From an uncultured Candidatus Saccharibacteria bacterium (GTDB lineage: Bacteria; Patescibacteriota; Minisyncoccia; UBA6257; WO2-44-18), in assembly GCA_964373675.1 (NCBI GenBank), contig CAYJVO010000001.1:4327-68326 (forward strand): a stretch of DNA of 64,000 nucleotides, in the 5' to 3' direction. Position numbers and translations under genes: made by a program. Of the stretch, positions 4,783 to 36,218 are shown piece after piece. Below the pieces are notes generated by a model, which worked only from the letters and a program-made list of their open reading frames with translations, did no database searches and was not told the origin of the DNA. How positions within the stretch are numbered: position 1 is the stretch's first letter; each line of letters begins with the position of its first letter.

Positions 4783-4859
4783 TGGCTGGGGAGCTAGGGC
4801 TCGAACCTAGAAGTCTCCTGCTCCAAAGGCAGGCGTGTTACCAATTACACCACTCCCCA
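4783..4859 (-). tRNA. tRNA-Gln (anticodon UUG)
   Basis: The reverse complement folds as a cloverleaf: acceptor UGGGGAG/CUCCCCA with the U1:A72 pair typical of bacterial tRNA-Gln. Anticodon stem CCUGC/GCAGG, loop CUUUGGA, T-loop TTCGAGC, encoded CCA. Confidence 0.85.
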
Positions 4860-5147: not shown

Positions 5148-5906
5148 ATGCGTTTTCGCGTTTTATTTATTATAGGAACACTTGCTGTTCTTTTAGTCGT
5201 CGGTGTCGCTCAGGCGAACCATTCTTGGGGAGGGTATCACTGGGCGCGTACCGCCAACCCATTCACCTTGAAGCTTGGCGACAACGTTGGAGCGGTCTGG
5301 GACGGCCACCTTACTACCGCATCAGGCGATTGGAGCGTGTCTTCGGCGTTAGACACCACAATTATTGCCGGTCAATCCAAAGGGAATTGTCGGCCCACCA
5401 ACGGGCGGGTAGAGGTTTGCAACAGAACCTACGGTTTCAATGGCTGGCTTGGTTTGGCGCAGATCTGGGTTACCAGCGATCAGCATATCACCAACGGTGT
5501 GGTCAAACTCAACGACACTTATTTCAACACCCCGACTTATAACACTCCGGCCTGGCGAAATCTTGTAGTGTGTCAGGAAATCGGCCATACGATTGGCCTT
5601 GATCATCAAGACGAGAATTTCAGCAATCCACCACTCGGCACTTGCATGGATTACTCAAGCGATCCTACGCCCAACCAGCATCCTAATCAGCATGACTACG
5701 ACCAACTGGAAGCGATCTACGCTCACCTTGATTCAGTAACCACGCTTTCCCAATCAAACGTTTCTAATAGGCGTGATGCCAATCACGAAGATTCGGGAGA
5801 ATGGGGTAAGTCCAGGAAGCGTGACGCTCGCGGCCGAACATCCATCTACGAACAAGATCTCGGCAAAGGCGAAAAGGTGTTCACCTTTGTATTCTGGACA
5901 GAATAG
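5148..5906 (+). CDS. Secreted metzincin-like protein (putative zinc metalloprotease, non-canonical motif)
   Basis: Signal peptide MRFRVLFIIGTLAVLLVVGVAQA. The QEIGHTIGLDH stretch fits HExxHxxGxxH with Gln in place of the first His. A downstream Cys/Met segment (GTCMDYSSDP) resembles a Met-turn, snapalysin-like. Confidence 0.5.
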   Translation: MRFRVLFIIGTLAVLLVVGVAQANHSWGGYHWARTANPFTLKLGDNVGAVWDGHLTTASGDWSVSSALDTTIIAGQSKGNCRPTNGRVEVCNRTYGFNGWLGLAQIWVTSDQHITNGVVKLNDTYFNTPTYNTPAWRNLVVCQEIGHTIGLDHQDENFSNPPLGTCMDYSSDPTPNQHPNQHDYDQLEAIYAHLDSVTTLSQSNVSNRRDANHEDSGEWGKSRKRDARGRTSIYEQDLGKGEKVFTFVFWTE

Positions 5907-29100: not shown

Positions 29101-29499
29101 GTGATAAAGTTTCCTAAAAACACAAAAGAATATCACTGGACCCAGCATATTAAAAATAAGATGCTTTTTTACCGCCTTTCGGAGCAAAAAATCCGGTCAA
29201 TTTTAAAATCCTACGACCGCAAAGAAGGGGGGATCGCGGCCAACACAATGGCAGTTATGAAACGCAACGATACGCCAAAACGACAGGAGGAAATTTGGCT
29301 CATGTACGCCATTAGTGGAATGGGTAATGCGACAAGTAAAACGGCTAAACCGATTCGTCCGTTTAACATGTCGCGTTCTGCATTTAACAAACTAACCATG
29401 ATTAGCGCTTGGCGATATCCGGGGAAAAGCAAACCGGGGAAACTGATTCCCATACCGGACGATATTTTACAGGAAATTAAAGATGTTTGGTTCGTTTAG
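29101..29499 (+). CDS. Hypothetical protein
   Basis: 132 aa, GTG start immediately after the TGTCATAGTCA motif. Basic, with no recognisable domain. Confidence 0.4.
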   Translation: MIKFPKNTKEYHWTQHIKNKMLFYRLSEQKIRSILKSYDRKEGGIAANTMAVMKRNDTPKRQEEIWLMYAISGMGNATSKTAKPIRPFNMSRSAFNKLTMISAWRYPGKSKPGKLIPIPDDILQEIKDVWFV

Positions 29500-29540: not shown

Positions 29541-30479
29541 ATGAAACTGCCGTTGCCGGAAGTGAAGTACCTTTTGCGACAATCTTTTTGCAAGGATACC
29601 AGTTTCACGCCAGACAAATGGGCGCCCGAGAATCCGACCTACGGTCATTGCGCGGTTGCAGTTCTTATTGCGCAAGATATTTTAGGAGGCGAAATTCGCC
29701 GCGGACTTTTGCCTAAAGAGTGGGCGGAAAAGCTCGGATACCGGTCGCATTATTGGAATGTCGGACTAGAAGCAAAGCCTAACTATTTTGATATTACCGC
29801 GGAGCAATTCCCCAAAGATTTTCCTTATGACGATTTTATTAATGGAATGTTTGAAGAAAACCCCGATCTTGCCGACAAGCGTGAGTACCTATTGTCCAAT
29901 CCTGAAACTAAGAAGCGCTATAAAATACTAAAAGAGCGGTTCGAGGCAACGCTTCGTTCCAATCCATTGTATCTGGACGAAAAGTTTCAGCTTTGCTGGG
30001 AAACGGCTTTTGCCGGCGGACCGCGCTGCAAGAAAATGGTCTTTGCTTGTCTCGTTTATGATGGCAATCGGCTGATCTCGTGGGAAGTCAATCGGCTGAT
30101 GACCGAACGGTTCGGCCAGCCGCGATTCTGCGCCATTGATGGCTCGGAGTGCATCCGGGTGAATATCCAAAGCCGAATGGACGCGACGGTTGGTGATTGC
30201 GGACATGCCCCGGTTTGGTCGCTGGCCAGAGTTTTCGAACTCGGTTACAAACCGGGCGATCTCCCGAAACTCGACTTCTACGAAGCCGGTTTCCGCCCGG
30301 ACGGATCTCCTTGGTGGCGAAATGAACCCAGCTACTCCTGCACTTATTGTCAGAATATATTTGCGATTTTCGGACTCGACAAGATTTGGGGCACTTGCTA
30401 CAACCAGTGGATGCCTCTCCGGACGCAAGACTCTTTTTATTCCTCCGGCAAATACGCCCTTGGGGAAAAGAAAGTTTAG
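29541..30479 (+). CDS. Cys/His-rich hypothetical protein; C-terminal half weakly deaminase-fold-like
   Basis: 312 aa. GC visibly higher than neighbours, and long shadow ORFs lie on both strands. The C-terminal segment ACLVYDGNRLISWEVN...CGHAPVW...SCTYCQNIFAIFG resembles the CDA-fold layout (H-A-x ... C-x2-C) but has Pro where the catalytic Glu would be. Confidence 0.55.
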   Translation: MKLPLPEVKYLLRQSFCKDTSFTPDKWAPENPTYGHCAVAVLIAQDILGGEIRRGLLPKEWAEKLGYRSHYWNVGLEAKPNYFDITAEQFPKDFPYDDFINGMFEENPDLADKREYLLSNPETKKRYKILKERFEATLRSNPLYLDEKFQLCWETAFAGGPRCKKMVFACLVYDGNRLISWEVNRLMTERFGQPRFCAIDGSECIRVNIQSRMDATVGDCGHAPVWSLARVFELGYKPGDLPKLDFYEAGFRPDGSPWWRNEPSYSCTYCQNIFAIFGLDKIWGTCYNQWMPLRTQDSFYSSGKYALGEKKV

Positions 30480-30492
30480 AGAAAAAGACCCG

Positions 30493-31608
30493 CTAAACGG
30501 GTCTTTTTGCTAAATCATAATTTCTCCAGCCGGGTTCTCCGGTAATTTCGCGTACTTCGCCAAGCCAATCAGGAATTTCTACCCGATCGTTTTCTTTTGT
30601 AAGCTCCACTTCCAAAAGCATTAGTCCCCAACAATGATACGGCTCCAGGAATAAATCCAGTTCAAAATACTGGTTTTTCCAGATAAAACAGCATCTTTCT
30701 TTGTGGATTGTTTTCCGTTCGGGGTCCCTCTGCGATAAAAGTTCATAATATCGCTGGGCGCTGATTTGAGTTTCCCGCTCTTCCCGCGCTTTTGCTGAAG
30801 CCGACGGTATTTTAAAAGTCTGGTAATAATCTGCCGCTTCGCCTTGCTTTCGCTTTCTGATCCTGCCAGCGGTTGCCCCGCCGTCTTTGCTAACAAGATA
30901 CGCCTGATCAATGTTTAACCGTTGATAAGGAACCGGCAGTTTTTGAATACTGAATCCTTTTACTAAAAACTTTCTTTTAATTTCCAGCGAAACTGGCATG
31001 CCGATGGATTTTTGCGCCGCTCTTATCAACCGCTTCATTTTTTCTTCAAACAAGAAGGAATTATCAATAATTACCAGGTGCGGATGACCGACCCAGGCTT
31101 CCTGGGTGCGCTTATCGGTCTTACGCGCCTCTTCCGGAGTTTCATAGCGAGTAGGATTATCTAAATTATAAAATTTTTCTTTGCCATCAGCAGCCGTTAC
31201 TAAATGAAAAACCGCCTCATAACGCTTATCCCTCAAACCCACTAAACTCCAGTGATTTTTATTCAGCAGTAGCTCAAATTCTTCGGGACGCAAATAAGCA
31301 GCCATGTCCATACAACCGCGATCCATCAATAAAACCTGCTTTTTCCCACCTTTAGCACGGAGTAAATTACCGTAATGCCGCTCGTCGGACATCTGCTTTT
31401 TAATAATAGTTTCTTCAAACTTCAAATAATCCCGGCGTGAAACCCGCCGCAAAAGCTCTTGCGGCCCTATACCGCCATTAATAATTTGTGTAGCTACCTC
31501 GGGAACAACCACTACTGACAATCCATAATCGGAGAGTTTTTCATAAAGATAGTGAAGTCCAGTAGTCTTTCCAGAGCACGGCCCGCCAGTCAGGACTATT
31601 CGCTTCAT
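30493..31608 (-). CDS. P-loop NTPase (AAA_28/NadR-kinase-like) fused to a C-terminal CYTH (triphosphate tunnel metalloenzyme) domain
   Basis: N-terminal Walker A IVLTGGPCSGKTT...VVVVPEVATQII and Walker B LLMDRG. C-terminal LEIKRKFLV ... LLEVELTKENDRVEIPDWLGEVREITGEPGWRNYDLAK matches the CYTH N-terminal signature (ExExK-like) and C-terminal signature (EhEh...P.W.G.EVT..P.Y.N..LA). Confidence 0.7.
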   Translation of the reverse strand: MKRIVLTGGPCSGKTTGLHYLYEKLSDYGLSVVVVPEVATQIINGGIGPQELLRRVSRRDYLKFEETIIKKQMSDERHYGNLLRAKGGKKQVLLMDRGCMDMAAYLRPEEFELLLNKNHWSLVGLRDKRYEAVFHLVTAADGKEKFYNLDNPTRYETPEEARKTDKRTQEAWVGHPHLVIIDNSFLFEEKMKRLIRAAQKSIGMPVSLEIKRKFLVKGFSIQKLPVPYQRLNIDQAYLVSKDGGATAGRIRKRKQGEAADYYQTFKIPSASAKAREERETQISAQRYYELLSQRDPERKTIHKERCCFIWKNQYFELDLFLEPYHCWGLMLLEVELTKENDRVEIPDWLGEVREITGEPGWRNYDLAKRPV

Positions 31609-33534: not shown

Positions 33535-33942
33535 ATGGCGGAAGTGAAAAGCCCCGAACAAAAACATTCTGCTTTAGAACGGGAAATTCAAATCCTCTCG
33601 GCCGAATTAAAAACTCTTAAACCTGAAACGGAAGCGGAAAAAGAAGCGCTGAAATCGCTTTTAAAAAGCCGAATTTATGGCTCCGCAACTCCCTCAATAC
33701 CAGGGGTACTTAAAAAAACCGAAGTTAAAGACAGACCAAAAATTCTTCCCGAATATTTAGAAACCGCCCCTAAAGACATCAAATTAGAAGTTGAAAAACT
33801 GCTGGATCTTGCTTGGCATAAAGGCATCGCTGCTGCTGCCCAAGAAGCGAAAAAAAACGAACCCTTAATAATTGATGGTTTTCATGATGCTCTTACTGAC
33901 AAACTTTACGAAGAATTCAAAAAGCGAAAACTGATTAAATGA
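33535..33942 (+). CDS. Hypothetical coiled-coil protein
   Basis: 135 aa, K/E-rich. The stop overlaps the start of the downstream coupling-ATPase gene, indicating translational coupling. Confidence 0.45.
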   Translation: MAEVKSPEQKHSALEREIQILSAELKTLKPETEAEKEALKSLLKSRIYGSATPSIPGVLKKTEVKDRPKILPEYLETAPKDIKLEVEKLLDLAWHKGIAAAAQEAKKNEPLIIDGFHDALTDKLYEEFKKRKLIK

Positions 33943-36218
33943 GCGTTTTGATTATTGGGTATCTAGCCGTAATTATTCTGGCAATCGGGGCCGCGGTATT
34001 TTTTATTCGCCGCTGGGCCTTACGAAAAACTTTTTTAGCGACCTTAAATTTAAAACTGCTCTTAATTCGTCTGTCAAAAAAACCCTTACCAGCGGGCGCA
34101 ACTGCCGAGGAACCGCTAAAAGAAATTAATGTTTCTGGCCAGCTATTCAGCATTTTAGCCGGCTCTAAAATACCGGTCGCTTTTGAATTAGCTGTTCATA
34201 ATGTTGGCGAGGAAATCCATTTTTATGCGGCAGTGCCGGTTAACGCGATTGAATTTGTCAAAAGACAAATTCAAGGATTCTGGCCGGATGCGCAGGTAGA
34301 GTTAAGCGATGATTACACGATTTTTAATTCTGCCGGCGCAATAGAGGCCGTGTATCTTAAACAAAAACGGGAATATTTTCTGCCGGTCCGCACTTACGCC
34401 GAAGCGCAAATAGACACTTTTCTGCCGATTTTAAGCGATTTTTCCAAACTGCAGACAATTAGCGAAGGATTGGCAATTCAAGTCATTATTAAGCCGGCGC
34501 CTTCATCGGTTAAAAAAGCGTTCATTGCTCATATTATCAACCTTAAAAAAAAGCAGGAAAAAGAACCTTCGCCGGAGGACGCGGAAAATATTAAATTATC
34601 CGAACAAAAAATTTCCAAACCGCTATTTTCAGCCAATTATCGCATTATTGCCTCTGCGCCTATACCGCTTAGAGCTCGGGAAATTCTGGATGGCGCGCTG
34701 ACTTCTCTGGTTCAATTTAGCGCGCCGCTCCGCAACGAATTTAAAGCCATTAGAGTCAAAAATCCCAAAAACCTGATAGCCAAATTTGTTTTTCGGCAAT
34801 TTGATGATCGCGAAACGATGATTTTAGGACTGGATGAACTGGTCAGCATCTTTCATTTGCCGACTTCTGCTACCGAAGTACCGCGTATTACGTGGGTAAA
34901 AGCGAGAGAGGCTCCTGCGCCGGCCGACCTGCCCAAATCAGGGGTTTTAATCGGGGAAAATATTTTCCGCGGCGATGCCAAACCGGTACGTATTGACGAC
35001 GATGATCGCCGCCGTCATGTCTATATCGTCGGTCAAACCGGCACCGGCAAGTCCAACCTTTTAATTAATATGGCCGCCAACGATATTGAAGCCGGAAAGG
35101 GGGTGGCGATTATTGATCCTCATGGCGATTTGATTGATTATCTAATCGGTCTCATTCCAGTTGACCGGAGAAACGATGTAATCTTGTTTGATCCCGGCGA
35201 TCTTCTGCGTCCCATCGGGCTTAATATGCTGGAATACAGCCCCGATCGGCCGGAGGAAAAAACCTTTATTGTCAATGAAATGCAGAGTATTTTTAACAAA
35301 CTCTTCTTGGCTGAAACGATGGGACCGATGTTTGAACAGTATATGCGCAATGCTCTTGTTCTCCTTATGGATGATATTACGCATCCAGCGACCTTGATGG
35401 AAGTGCCTCGTATATTTACCGATGCCGACTTTCGTCAAAGAAAACTCGCTCAAGCCACCAATCCGGCGGTGATAGATTTTTGGACTAAAGAAGCGCCCAA
35501 AGCCGGCGGTGAAGCGGCGCTTGCCAATATGACGCCTTATATTACTTCTAAGTTCAATAATTTTATTGCCAACGATTATGTCCGGCCGATCATTGGCCAA
35601 AAAAAATCATCTTTTAATTTCCGCCAAGTGATGGATGAAGGAAAAATCTTGCTGGTTAATCTTGTTAAAGGCAAAATAGGGGATATTAACGCCAATCTTT
35701 TAGGTATGATTGTTGTCGGTAAACTGCTGATGGCGGCACTCTCCCGCGTTGATCTGCCAGAAATTAAAAGACGCGACTTTAATTTGTATATTGATGAATT
35801 TCAAAACTTTACTACTGAATCCATTGCTACCATTCTTTCTGAAGCTCGCAAATACCGTCTTAATTTAGTCATTGCCCATCAATTTATCGCTCAACTCAGC
35901 GAAAAAATCCGCGATGCCGTTTTCGGCAATGTCGGCTCCAGTATTGCTTTTAGAATTGGCGCGGATGACGCAGAGTATTTAGATAAACAATTTGCGCCAG
36001 TTTTTTCCAAAGATGATTTGATAAATATTGATAACTTCAACGCTTATGTAAAGCTTTTGGTTGGCGGCAAAACCACTAAACCATTTAATATCCGTACTCT
36101 TCCGGCTCCAGTAGGGGATGAAGCTGTAAAACGAACTATCCGGGAATGGTCCAGTCAAACCTACGGCCGCGACCGACAGGAAGTAGAGACAGAGATTTTA
36201 ACCCGTTTGCGCACATAA
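33939..36218 (+). CDS. Type IV secretion/conjugation coupling-protein-like ATPase (TrwB/TraD/VirD4 family, TM-anchored)
   Basis: N-terminal TM (VLIIGYLAVIILAIGAAVFFI). Walker A HVYIVGQTGTGKSNLL...GVAIIDPHGDL...DVILFDPGD matches the TrwB_AAD_bind pattern. Walker B LYIDEFQNF is followed by AHQ. Confidence 0.7.
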   Translation: MSVLIIGYLAVIILAIGAAVFFIRRWALRKTFLATLNLKLLLIRLSKKPLPAGATAEEPLKEINVSGQLFSILAGSKIPVAFELAVHNVGEEIHFYAAVPVNAIEFVKRQIQGFWPDAQVELSDDYTIFNSAGAIEAVYLKQKREYFLPVRTYAEAQIDTFLPILSDFSKLQTISEGLAIQVIIKPAPSSVKKAFIAHIINLKKKQEKEPSPEDAENIKLSEQKISKPLFSANYRIIASAPIPLRAREILDGALTSLVQFSAPLRNEFKAIRVKNPKNLIAKFVFRQFDDRETMILGLDELVSIFHLPTSATEVPRITWVKAREAPAPADLPKSGVLIGENIFRGDAKPVRIDDDDRRRHVYIVGQTGTGKSNLLINMAANDIEAGKGVAIIDPHGDLIDYLIGLIPVDRRNDVILFDPGDLLRPIGLNMLEYSPDRPEEKTFIVNEMQSIFNKLFLAETMGPMFEQYMRNALVLLMDDITHPATLMEVPRIFTDADFRQRKLAQATNPAVIDFWTKEAPKAGGEAALANMTPYITSKFNNFIANDYVRPIIGQKKSSFNFRQVMDEGKILLVNLVKGKIGDINANLLGMIVVGKLLMAALSRVDLPEIKRRDFNLYIDEFQNFTTESIATILSEARKYRLNLVIAHQFIAQLSEKIRDAVFGNVGSSIAFRIGADDAEYLDKQFAPVFSKDDLINIDNFNAYVKLLVGGKTTKPFNIRTLPAPVGDEAVKRTIREWSSQTYGRDRQEVETEILTRLRT

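Follow-up and report, generated by a model that had tools for sequence, protein, structure and literature searches.

Among the synapomorphies that Iyer et al. (2011, PMC3239186) give for deoxycytidine monophosphate (dCMP) deaminases of the cytidine deaminase (CDA) fold are a zinc-supported insert and a cysteine placed after helix 1 and before strand 1. The catalytic glutamate of the fold is replaced by valine in ADAT3, in which a carboxylate, Asp348, provides the fourth ligand of the zinc (PMC8216470). This protein, a member of the TadA/Tad2 clade, is the catalytically inactive subunit of the eukaryotic tRNA A34 deaminase, a heterodimer with active ADAT2; in the vertebrate (d)CTP deaminase CDADC1, the N-domain is partnered by a second, active deaminase domain. 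To our knowledge, pseudo-deaminases such as ADAT3 and CDADC1-N are well known from eukaryotes but have seldom been described in bacteria. Here we describe a candidate from a 64,000-nucleotide stretch of an uncultured Candidatus Saccharibacteria bacterium (assembly GCA_964373675.1, contig CAYJVO010000001.1, positions 4,327 to 68,326), referred to as the window. A complete open reading frame (ORF) with an ATG start at 29541-30479 (+) encodes a protein of 312 aa, the window protein, in which a YunG domain is followed by a dCMP-deaminase-like domain that lacks the catalytic glutamate. Sequence comparison suggests a clade-wide bacterial deaminase relative, either a pseudo-enzyme or rewired, that is joined to an uncharacterised thiol-enzyme-like domain.

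By analogy, ADAT3 and the CDADC1 N-domain would be the nearest conceptual relatives of this arrangement. The likeness to ADAT3/Tad3 comprises the CDA fold, retention of the zinc ligands, replacement of the glutamate (by Val in ADAT3, by Pro in the window protein), an extra N-terminal domain and an acquired carboxylate near the zinc site, although a fourth-ligand role for Asp219 or Glu248 of the window protein is conjecture. The two differ in clade, and neither an active partner nor an RNA-binding feature nor a heterodimer is evident for the window protein. The CDADC1 N-domain has no close sequence relationship to the window protein, whose partner is YunG and not a second deaminase domain.

Residues 146-312 (29976-30476, +) are a CDA-fold domain of the dCMP deaminase type. 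An alignment-based AlphaFold2 (AF2) model of the protein (pLDDT 87.7, pTM 0.87) has the predicted five-stranded sheet with helices 2 and 3 bearing the zinc site, as the fold demands, and the top ~40 Foldseek matches in the PDB are all cytidine or dCMP deaminases (probability up to 1.00). When a profile of the clade was aligned by hhalign with a profile of bona fide PF00383 proteins, the probability was 99.8% (E 1.6e-27). BLASTP against P0057, a homologue that carries PF24585, PF00383 and an intact HAEE motif, gave 33% identity over 309 aa (E 6e-42) and paired GDCGHAPVW with GACDHAEEW and YSCTYC with HTCLRC. A profile of the C-terminal domain of the clade searched against 1.84 billion representatives recovered 97 proteins, many of them over the PF00383 gathering threshold, and a mixed-clade profile matched the S. 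mutans dCMP deaminase (E 2e-9) as well as the S-TIM5, human and T4 dCMP deaminases.

The preliminary description of this DNA, made by reading the letters, had quoted three peptides as resembling deaminase motifs in order and spacing. All are present and, in the AF2 model, map to the C-terminal domain: ACLVYDGNRLISWEVN forms strands 1-2 (residues 169-184), CGHAPVWSLAR begins helix 2 (residues 220-230) and SCTYCQNIFAIFGL makes up helix 3 (residues 266-279). The hhalign and BLASTP values above put this likeness beyond chance. The suggested CDA fold is likewise upheld, as the HHpred-type comparison with PF00383 was positive and the outcome that would have told against it, a lack of any CDA-family match, did not occur.

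Direct searches with the window protein were less telling. Residues 146-312 gave no match to PF00383 even at E<=1, and thus did not reach its gathering threshold of 25 bits; sister proteins score 26.6-34.5 bits. The homology of the window domain is established indirectly, through the sister proteins and hhalign. An NCBIfam scan of the window protein found no match, phmmer of the protein against the PDB returned noise only, and a clade-only profile against the PDB had one sub-threshold match, to a dCMP deaminase (E 0.92). The comparison identifies a domain that Pfam and NCBIfam overlook, and places 'hypothetical' Patescibacteria proteins in a discrete, strongly constrained branch without the glutamate. 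Although it descends from dCMP deaminases, the domain lacks the H-x-E motif and falls short of the Pfam threshold, so annotation as a dCMP deaminase is unwarranted.

The closest solved sequences are those of the dCMP deaminase/ComEB clade (T4 Cd, S. mutans and human DCTD, S-TIM5, PBCV-1 bi-DCD), and much of what characterises that clade is recognisable. The zinc-ligand residues His222, Cys267 and Cys270 align with the H...CxxC of PF00383 proteins and are retained, which predicts zinc binding; within the clade Cys267 and Cys270 are conserved in 100% and His222 in 93% of sequences. The CxxC motif, C267-T-Y-C270 (30339-30350, +), opens helix 3 and is invariant in both the Glu-less clade and the clade with intact HAE. 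Cys163 (30027-30029, +), between helix 1 and strand 1, is also invariant in both clades and is a predicted structural-zinc ligand, corresponding to the synapomorphy reported for dCMP deaminases (PMC3239186). A nucleotide-binding insert (30129-30200, +) would contribute further structural-zinc ligands, Cys197, Cys204 and Cys220; it also holds the conserved Arg206, Ser211 and Arg212 and the clade-specific Asp219 (30195-30197). The sequence pattern of the structural-zinc synapomorphy is thus present (C163, C197, C204, C220), the third insert ligand being Cys and not His. Conservation across both clades extends to H222, C267, C270, C163, C197, C204, C220, N184, R206, S211 and R212.

Other hallmarks are partial or missing. 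Of the NxxP synapomorphy at the end of strand 2, Asn184 is invariant and the proline is absent (NRLM). Neither the 'NA' two residues past HxE nor the TxxxT of strand 3 was found in the window protein, which has HAPVWSLA and LDFYEAGF at these places. It differs from the dCMP deaminase/ComEB clade in these two respects and in lacking the H-x-E glutamate, in having Ser or Thr where Pro precedes CxxC, in a 15-residue insert between strand 3 and CxxC, and in the added YunG domain.

The central change is at H222-A223-P224 (30204-30212, +), which aligns with the HAE of P0057 and of PF00383 proteins and has proline at the position of the catalytic glutamate. This position is P, V, I, S, Q, Y or L in the clade and never E (0/46 members). 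The alignments bear out the preliminary description on both replacements it had read from the motifs, Glu to Pro224 and the Pro before CxxC to Ser266. Also absent from the clade are the final Glu of HAEE and the Arg in C-[IL]-R-C. An acidic residue has been gained: Glu248 (30282-30284, +), in the FYEAGF of strand 3, is invariant and specific to the clade and replaces V/I; its counterpart in the S. mutans dCMP deaminase is the V of 'YVTHFPC'. Among 207 parsable sequences the two positions are perfectly anticorrelated. Every one of the 162 sequences with the helix-2 Glu has V, I, Y, P or L at the strand-3 position, never E, and all ~45 without it carry Glu there. Position 219 behaves similarly, with D or E in 43/45 Glu-less sequences versus A, S or G in 161/162 HAE sequences.

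The Glu-less sequences are monophyletic in a neighbour-joining tree (bootstrap 59/60), and on this evidence the clade is nested in a much larger family of YunG-dCMP-deaminase fusions with intact HAEE and CxxC. The HAE-type fusions (P0057, P0051, P0052) have the same architecture and length as the window protein, with 33% identity over the full length, and share with its clade the zinc ligands, the structural-zinc cysteines, the CIR...SR insert and a C-terminal YALGEKK tail; in related genomes their position with respect to the AAA_28 gene (see below) is also the same. They differ in having CxHAEE and [HF][TS]C[IL]RC, in contrast to C[GA]H[AGS][P/V/I..] and Y[ST]CxxC in the window clade, which has gained D219 and E248 and in which the Cys-Cys spacing is three residues longer (C-x6-C versus C-x3-C). 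The HAE-type fusions are uncharacterised, and some are labelled 'deoxycytidylate deaminase' by JGI.

Only six loci of the Glu-less type were found among 185,579 species genomes, all in Patescibacteria, in Giovannonibacteria, Paceibacteria and 'Saccharibacteria' metagenome-assembled genomes. Fusions of the HAE type are much more numerous, with at least 178 clusters, and occur in other lineages of the candidate phyla radiation and on one archaeal-looking contig. Taken together, tree and distribution indicate that the window protein belongs to a Glu-less offshoot, confined to Patescibacteria, of the YunG-dCMP-deaminase fusions of small-genome symbionts. The archaeal-looking case is an HAE-type YunG-deaminase (L017:5001-5963) on a 651-kb contig with split Rpb1-type RNA polymerase subunits and an LSM protein among its neighbours, and the fusion family may reach DPANN-like archaea.

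The window protein has 43 homologues; ~40 are full length, share its two-domain architecture at 50-71% identity and all come from Patescibacteria. In nearly all, the C-terminal domain is the more conserved one (54-72% identity versus 40-70% for the N-domain in full-length comparisons), and most of the 30 invariant columns lie in it. The family is under strong purifying selection. The Glu-less CDA domain also occurs behind another, unannotated N-terminus of ~70-90 aa (motif ...P..AL.YFL...) in P0047, P0048, P0050, P0053, P0060 and P0073; four of these non-YunG proteins (P0047, P0050, P0060, P0073) fall within the clade in the tree. Two proteins, P0039 (L004:8001-8963) and that at L010:4546-5481, combine a Glu-less C-domain with an N-domain like that of the HAE type: their N-domains have 70% and 61% identity to HAE-type proteins versus at most 60% to Glu-less N-domains, and in its C-domain P0039 is the sister of the subclade that holds the window protein. 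These chimeras suggest recombination between the two gene types. Closely related genomes hold active-type, Glu-less or chimeric copies at one locus, a natural experiment.

The preliminary description spoke of a deaminase-fold protein. This holds for residues ~146-312 only; the N-terminal half, residues 1-145 (29541-29975, +), is a separate YunG domain that had been overlooked. The match to PF24585 (72.3 bits, E 4.7e-20) spans residues 7-138 and profile positions 4-115 of 116, passes the gathering threshold of 27 bits and, as profile evidence, makes the window protein a member of YunG. T20, W27, N31, H36, C37, H70, Y71, N73, D84, Q89 and R126 do not vary among YunG proteins, whether fused or stand-alone. 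Three of them have a suggestive arrangement in the models: Cys37 (29649-29651, +), the predicted nucleophile, opens the helix of residues 37-48; His70 (29748-29750, +), the predicted triad histidine in the HYWN motif, opens the strand of residues 69-74; and Asp84 (29790-29792, +), the predicted third member, sits on the strand that follows. Papain/transglutaminase-like thiol enzymes have this layout, and thiol catalysis is predicted. The modelled fold resembles protein-glutaminase, SseI and transglutaminase-like enzymes, and the papain/transglutaminase-like Cys-His-Asp enzymes (protein-glutaminase, the SseI deamidase, LapG, arylamine N-acetyltransferases, Atu2299) are among the closest known systems to the domain. 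Literature searches on YunG and PF24585 found nothing useful. Searched on its own, the N-domain gave only two homologues, a word-index effect. The arrangement offers a first functional handle on YunG, as a predicted Cys-His-Asp thiol enzyme tied to cytosine-nucleotide metabolism.

The 'inactive or repurposed' deaminase of the preliminary description remains the most reasonable reading of these sequences. We propose that the window protein is a cytoplasmic two-domain protein whose CDA-fold domain, having no proton-shuttling glutamate, would not deaminate. It would still hold zinc, and probably a pyrimidine nucleotide, and the carboxylate of D219 or E248 could take the former water site on the metal, as Asp348 does in ADAT3. 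Probably, then, this domain serves the intact YunG catalytic domain as a non-deaminating ligand-binding, regulatory or scaffolding module with a role in pyrimidine salvage, and it may show how ultra-small symbionts handle pyrimidine nucleotides. Gene neighbours are suggestive of the salvage link: cdd (cytidine deaminase) lies directly downstream at L008 and L015, adenosine deaminase and IMPDH lie upstream at L002, and the AAA_28 neighbour of the window gene is conserved. Several points weigh against the proposal. Neighbourhoods are otherwise variable (neighbours include PMT, AAA_28, YchF, ribosomal proteins, enolase and cdd), which weakens the salvage link. The predicted inactivity follows from the missing glutamate alone, and the exchange of a helix-2 Glu for a strand-3 Glu could equally mean that the catalytic base has moved. 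In P0034 (L005:8001-8936, from a 27% GC genome) and P0060, moreover, the helix-2 zinc histidine appears as tyrosine (CGYAP, CDYAV), which questions zinc binding throughout the Glu-less clade.

A moved base is the substance of a different proposal, that the domain is a rewired but active zinc hydrolase in which Glu248 of strand 3, perhaps with help from Asp219, has taken over the acid/base function of helix 2, and which works in tandem with YunG. It would deaminate or hydrolyse its substrate, perhaps another cytosine derivative. The co-variation fits both a pseudo-enzyme and a rewired enzyme. The perfect anticorrelation of the two glutamates (162 versus ~45 sequences) speaks for relocation, and an invariant Glu248 where a central strand otherwise has a hydrophobic residue is what one typically sees of a charge kept for function and not for structure. 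The Glu-less domain retains its three zinc ligands and the insert residues and is mostly more conserved than its partner. On the other hand, two more active-site residues, the final HAEE Glu and the C-[IL]-R-C Arg, have been lost, and we know of no CDA-fold enzyme that functions without the helix-2 glutamate. A carboxylate beside the zinc site is, moreover, documented as inactivating in ADAT3 (PMC8216470). We regard a rewired hydrolase as possible, at odds clearly poorer than those of the non-deaminating module. A bolder version, which we consider slightly more doubtful still, would have the rewired domain and the YunG Cys-His-Asp site act together on a modified cytosine nucleotide that the cell has salvaged from its host, for example removing or transferring an N4-acyl group without deaminating the base. 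If true, it would be the first CDA-fold catalyst without the H-x-E glutamate and would supply the first function for the YunG family. The exchange of glutamates in either case bears on whether CDA-fold catalytic residues can relocate.

Could the domain instead be a decaying remnant without function? The catalytic residue is lost and Pfam does not recognise the domain, as might be expected of decay, but the frame of 312 codons is intact, ~40 full-length homologues persist at 50-71% identity, the 30 invariant columns fall mostly in the C-domain and the AF2 model is confident. Because the Glu-less domain is mostly better conserved than the YunG domain, it must be functional and decay is excluded; of all the readings we give this one the least credence. 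A role in toxicity or immunity, at which the preliminary description had hinted from the frequency of deaminase folds in such contexts, or in anti-phage defence fares hardly better and is very improbable. Deaminase folds are indeed frequent in polymorphic toxins (PMC3239186), and the gene is compositionally atypical. However, the protein has no signal peptide and no Rhs, PAAR, LXG or other delivery domain, YunG being the only addition; domain scan, neighbours and relatives disclose no polymorphic-toxin feature (delivery domain, adjacent immunity gene or toxin-clade motifs). Nothing marks it as an anti-phage dCTP deaminase or defence protein in PADLOC, run on the gene and three neighbours, or in NCBIfam, run on the gene. 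No viral relatives of the window protein were found, its neighbours are housekeeping and nucleotide-metabolism genes, the gene is syntenic among relatives, and the nearest relatives by structure and sequence are metabolic dCMP deaminases and not toxin clades.

Recent horizontal acquisition of the gene, or replacement of its C-domain, from a relative of higher GC (guanine plus cytosine) content would be compatible with any of these functions. The GC excess noted in the preliminary description is real, if slightly smaller than the ~10 points given there: the ORF has 49.7% GC, while its 1.5-kb flanks have 41.1% (upstream) and 42.1% (downstream), a difference of +8-9 points and a value that only 1% of 939-nt sliding windows reach. 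Against the 51 other ORFs of the window, GC has z=2.4 and GC at third codon positions (GC3), a check that description had called for, z=3.2, the top value in the window. GC1 and GC2, at the other codon positions, are raised too. The excess lies almost wholly in the C-terminal domain (GC 0.534, GC3 0.613) as opposed to the N-terminal domain (0.455, 0.469). The claim of a Cys- and His-rich protein stands for cysteine (3.5% versus 0.52 +/- 0.60% in the other ORFs) and fails for histidine, which is low (1.0% versus 1.7%); the protein is also rich in tryptophan (3.2%).

The GC3 value and its concentration in the C-domain (0.61 versus 0.47) speak for acquisition, as do nearest homologues with gene GC of 0.48-0.51 from contigs of 46-47% GC and the occurrence of domain chimeras in the family (P0039 and the L010 protein). 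The two domains of the window protein, however, match their closest relatives equally well (70/72% and 70/65%), which gives no sign of a mosaic; the block is syntenic with L004, no mobile element or tRNA flanks the gene, and an excess of 6-9 points in a 0.9-kb gene is within reach of amino-acid composition and sampling. Homologues elsewhere follow the GC of their hosts (27-54%), deviating by ~3 points at most. Since homologues track host GC and the gene lies in a syntenic block, the composition anomaly, though real, is weak evidence for foreign origin. The window copy is moderately GC-rich for its 43% GC context and could be foreign, a history we consider unlikely.

The sole other region of the window that is equally GC-rich (up to 54%) is 5148-5906 (+), which adjoins a tRNA at 4786-4859 (-). 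Its product is a probable secreted protein that has no Pfam match and bears a zincin-like QEIGHTIGLDH motif with Gln for the first His.

Two further ORFs overlap the coding sequence, one antisense (29928-30428, -, 166 aa) and one out of frame (30190-30513, +, 107 aa), and no other CDA-fold gene was found within the 64 kb. The convergent neighbour at 30493-31608 (-) encodes an AAA_28 P-loop NTPase/kinase-like protein (PF13521, E 6.3e-25) without a solved relative by sequence. Its C-terminal half has no Pfam match and contains EIKRKFLV, a CYTH-like ExExK motif on which the CYTH assignment alone is based. Between the two genes, a hairpin read from the sequence (GACCCG-CTAAA-CGGGTC, 30487-30508, with T5 after it and A5 upstream) overlaps the AAA_28 stop codon and is likely a bidirectional terminator common to the convergent pair. 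A consensus promoter/terminator scan was uninformative and did not list it.

Conservation of the convergent AAA_28 gene extends from the window to L004 (47% identity) and L015 (43% identity). L004 (5863-10112), with a Glu-less C-domain, and L015 (2005-3617), with HAEE and an adjacent cdd, have flanking acyl-CoA-dehydrogenase-like genes that are 70% identical, whereas their YunG-fusion proteins are only 44% identical. The common flanking gene and AAA_28 indicate that both gene types occupy the same site in related genomes. A 635-aa gene upstream of P0057 was considered as a PMT orthologue and rejected, since it is the acyl-CoA-dehydrogenase-like gene of L004 (70% identity). With that orthology gone, the positional equivalence of P0057 to the window gene depends only on the downstream AAA_28 gene (and YchF). 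In the gap upstream of the window gene, two mutually exclusive putative ORFs at 29101-29499 (+, 132 aa) and 29211-29453 (-, 80 aa) match no family, and a public gene call picked the minus-strand one. About 3.5 kb downstream, a VirD4/TraG-like coupling-protein ATPase (T4SS-DNA_transf, DUF87) is encoded at 33939-36218 (+), and such a gene follows in the syntenic L004 too.

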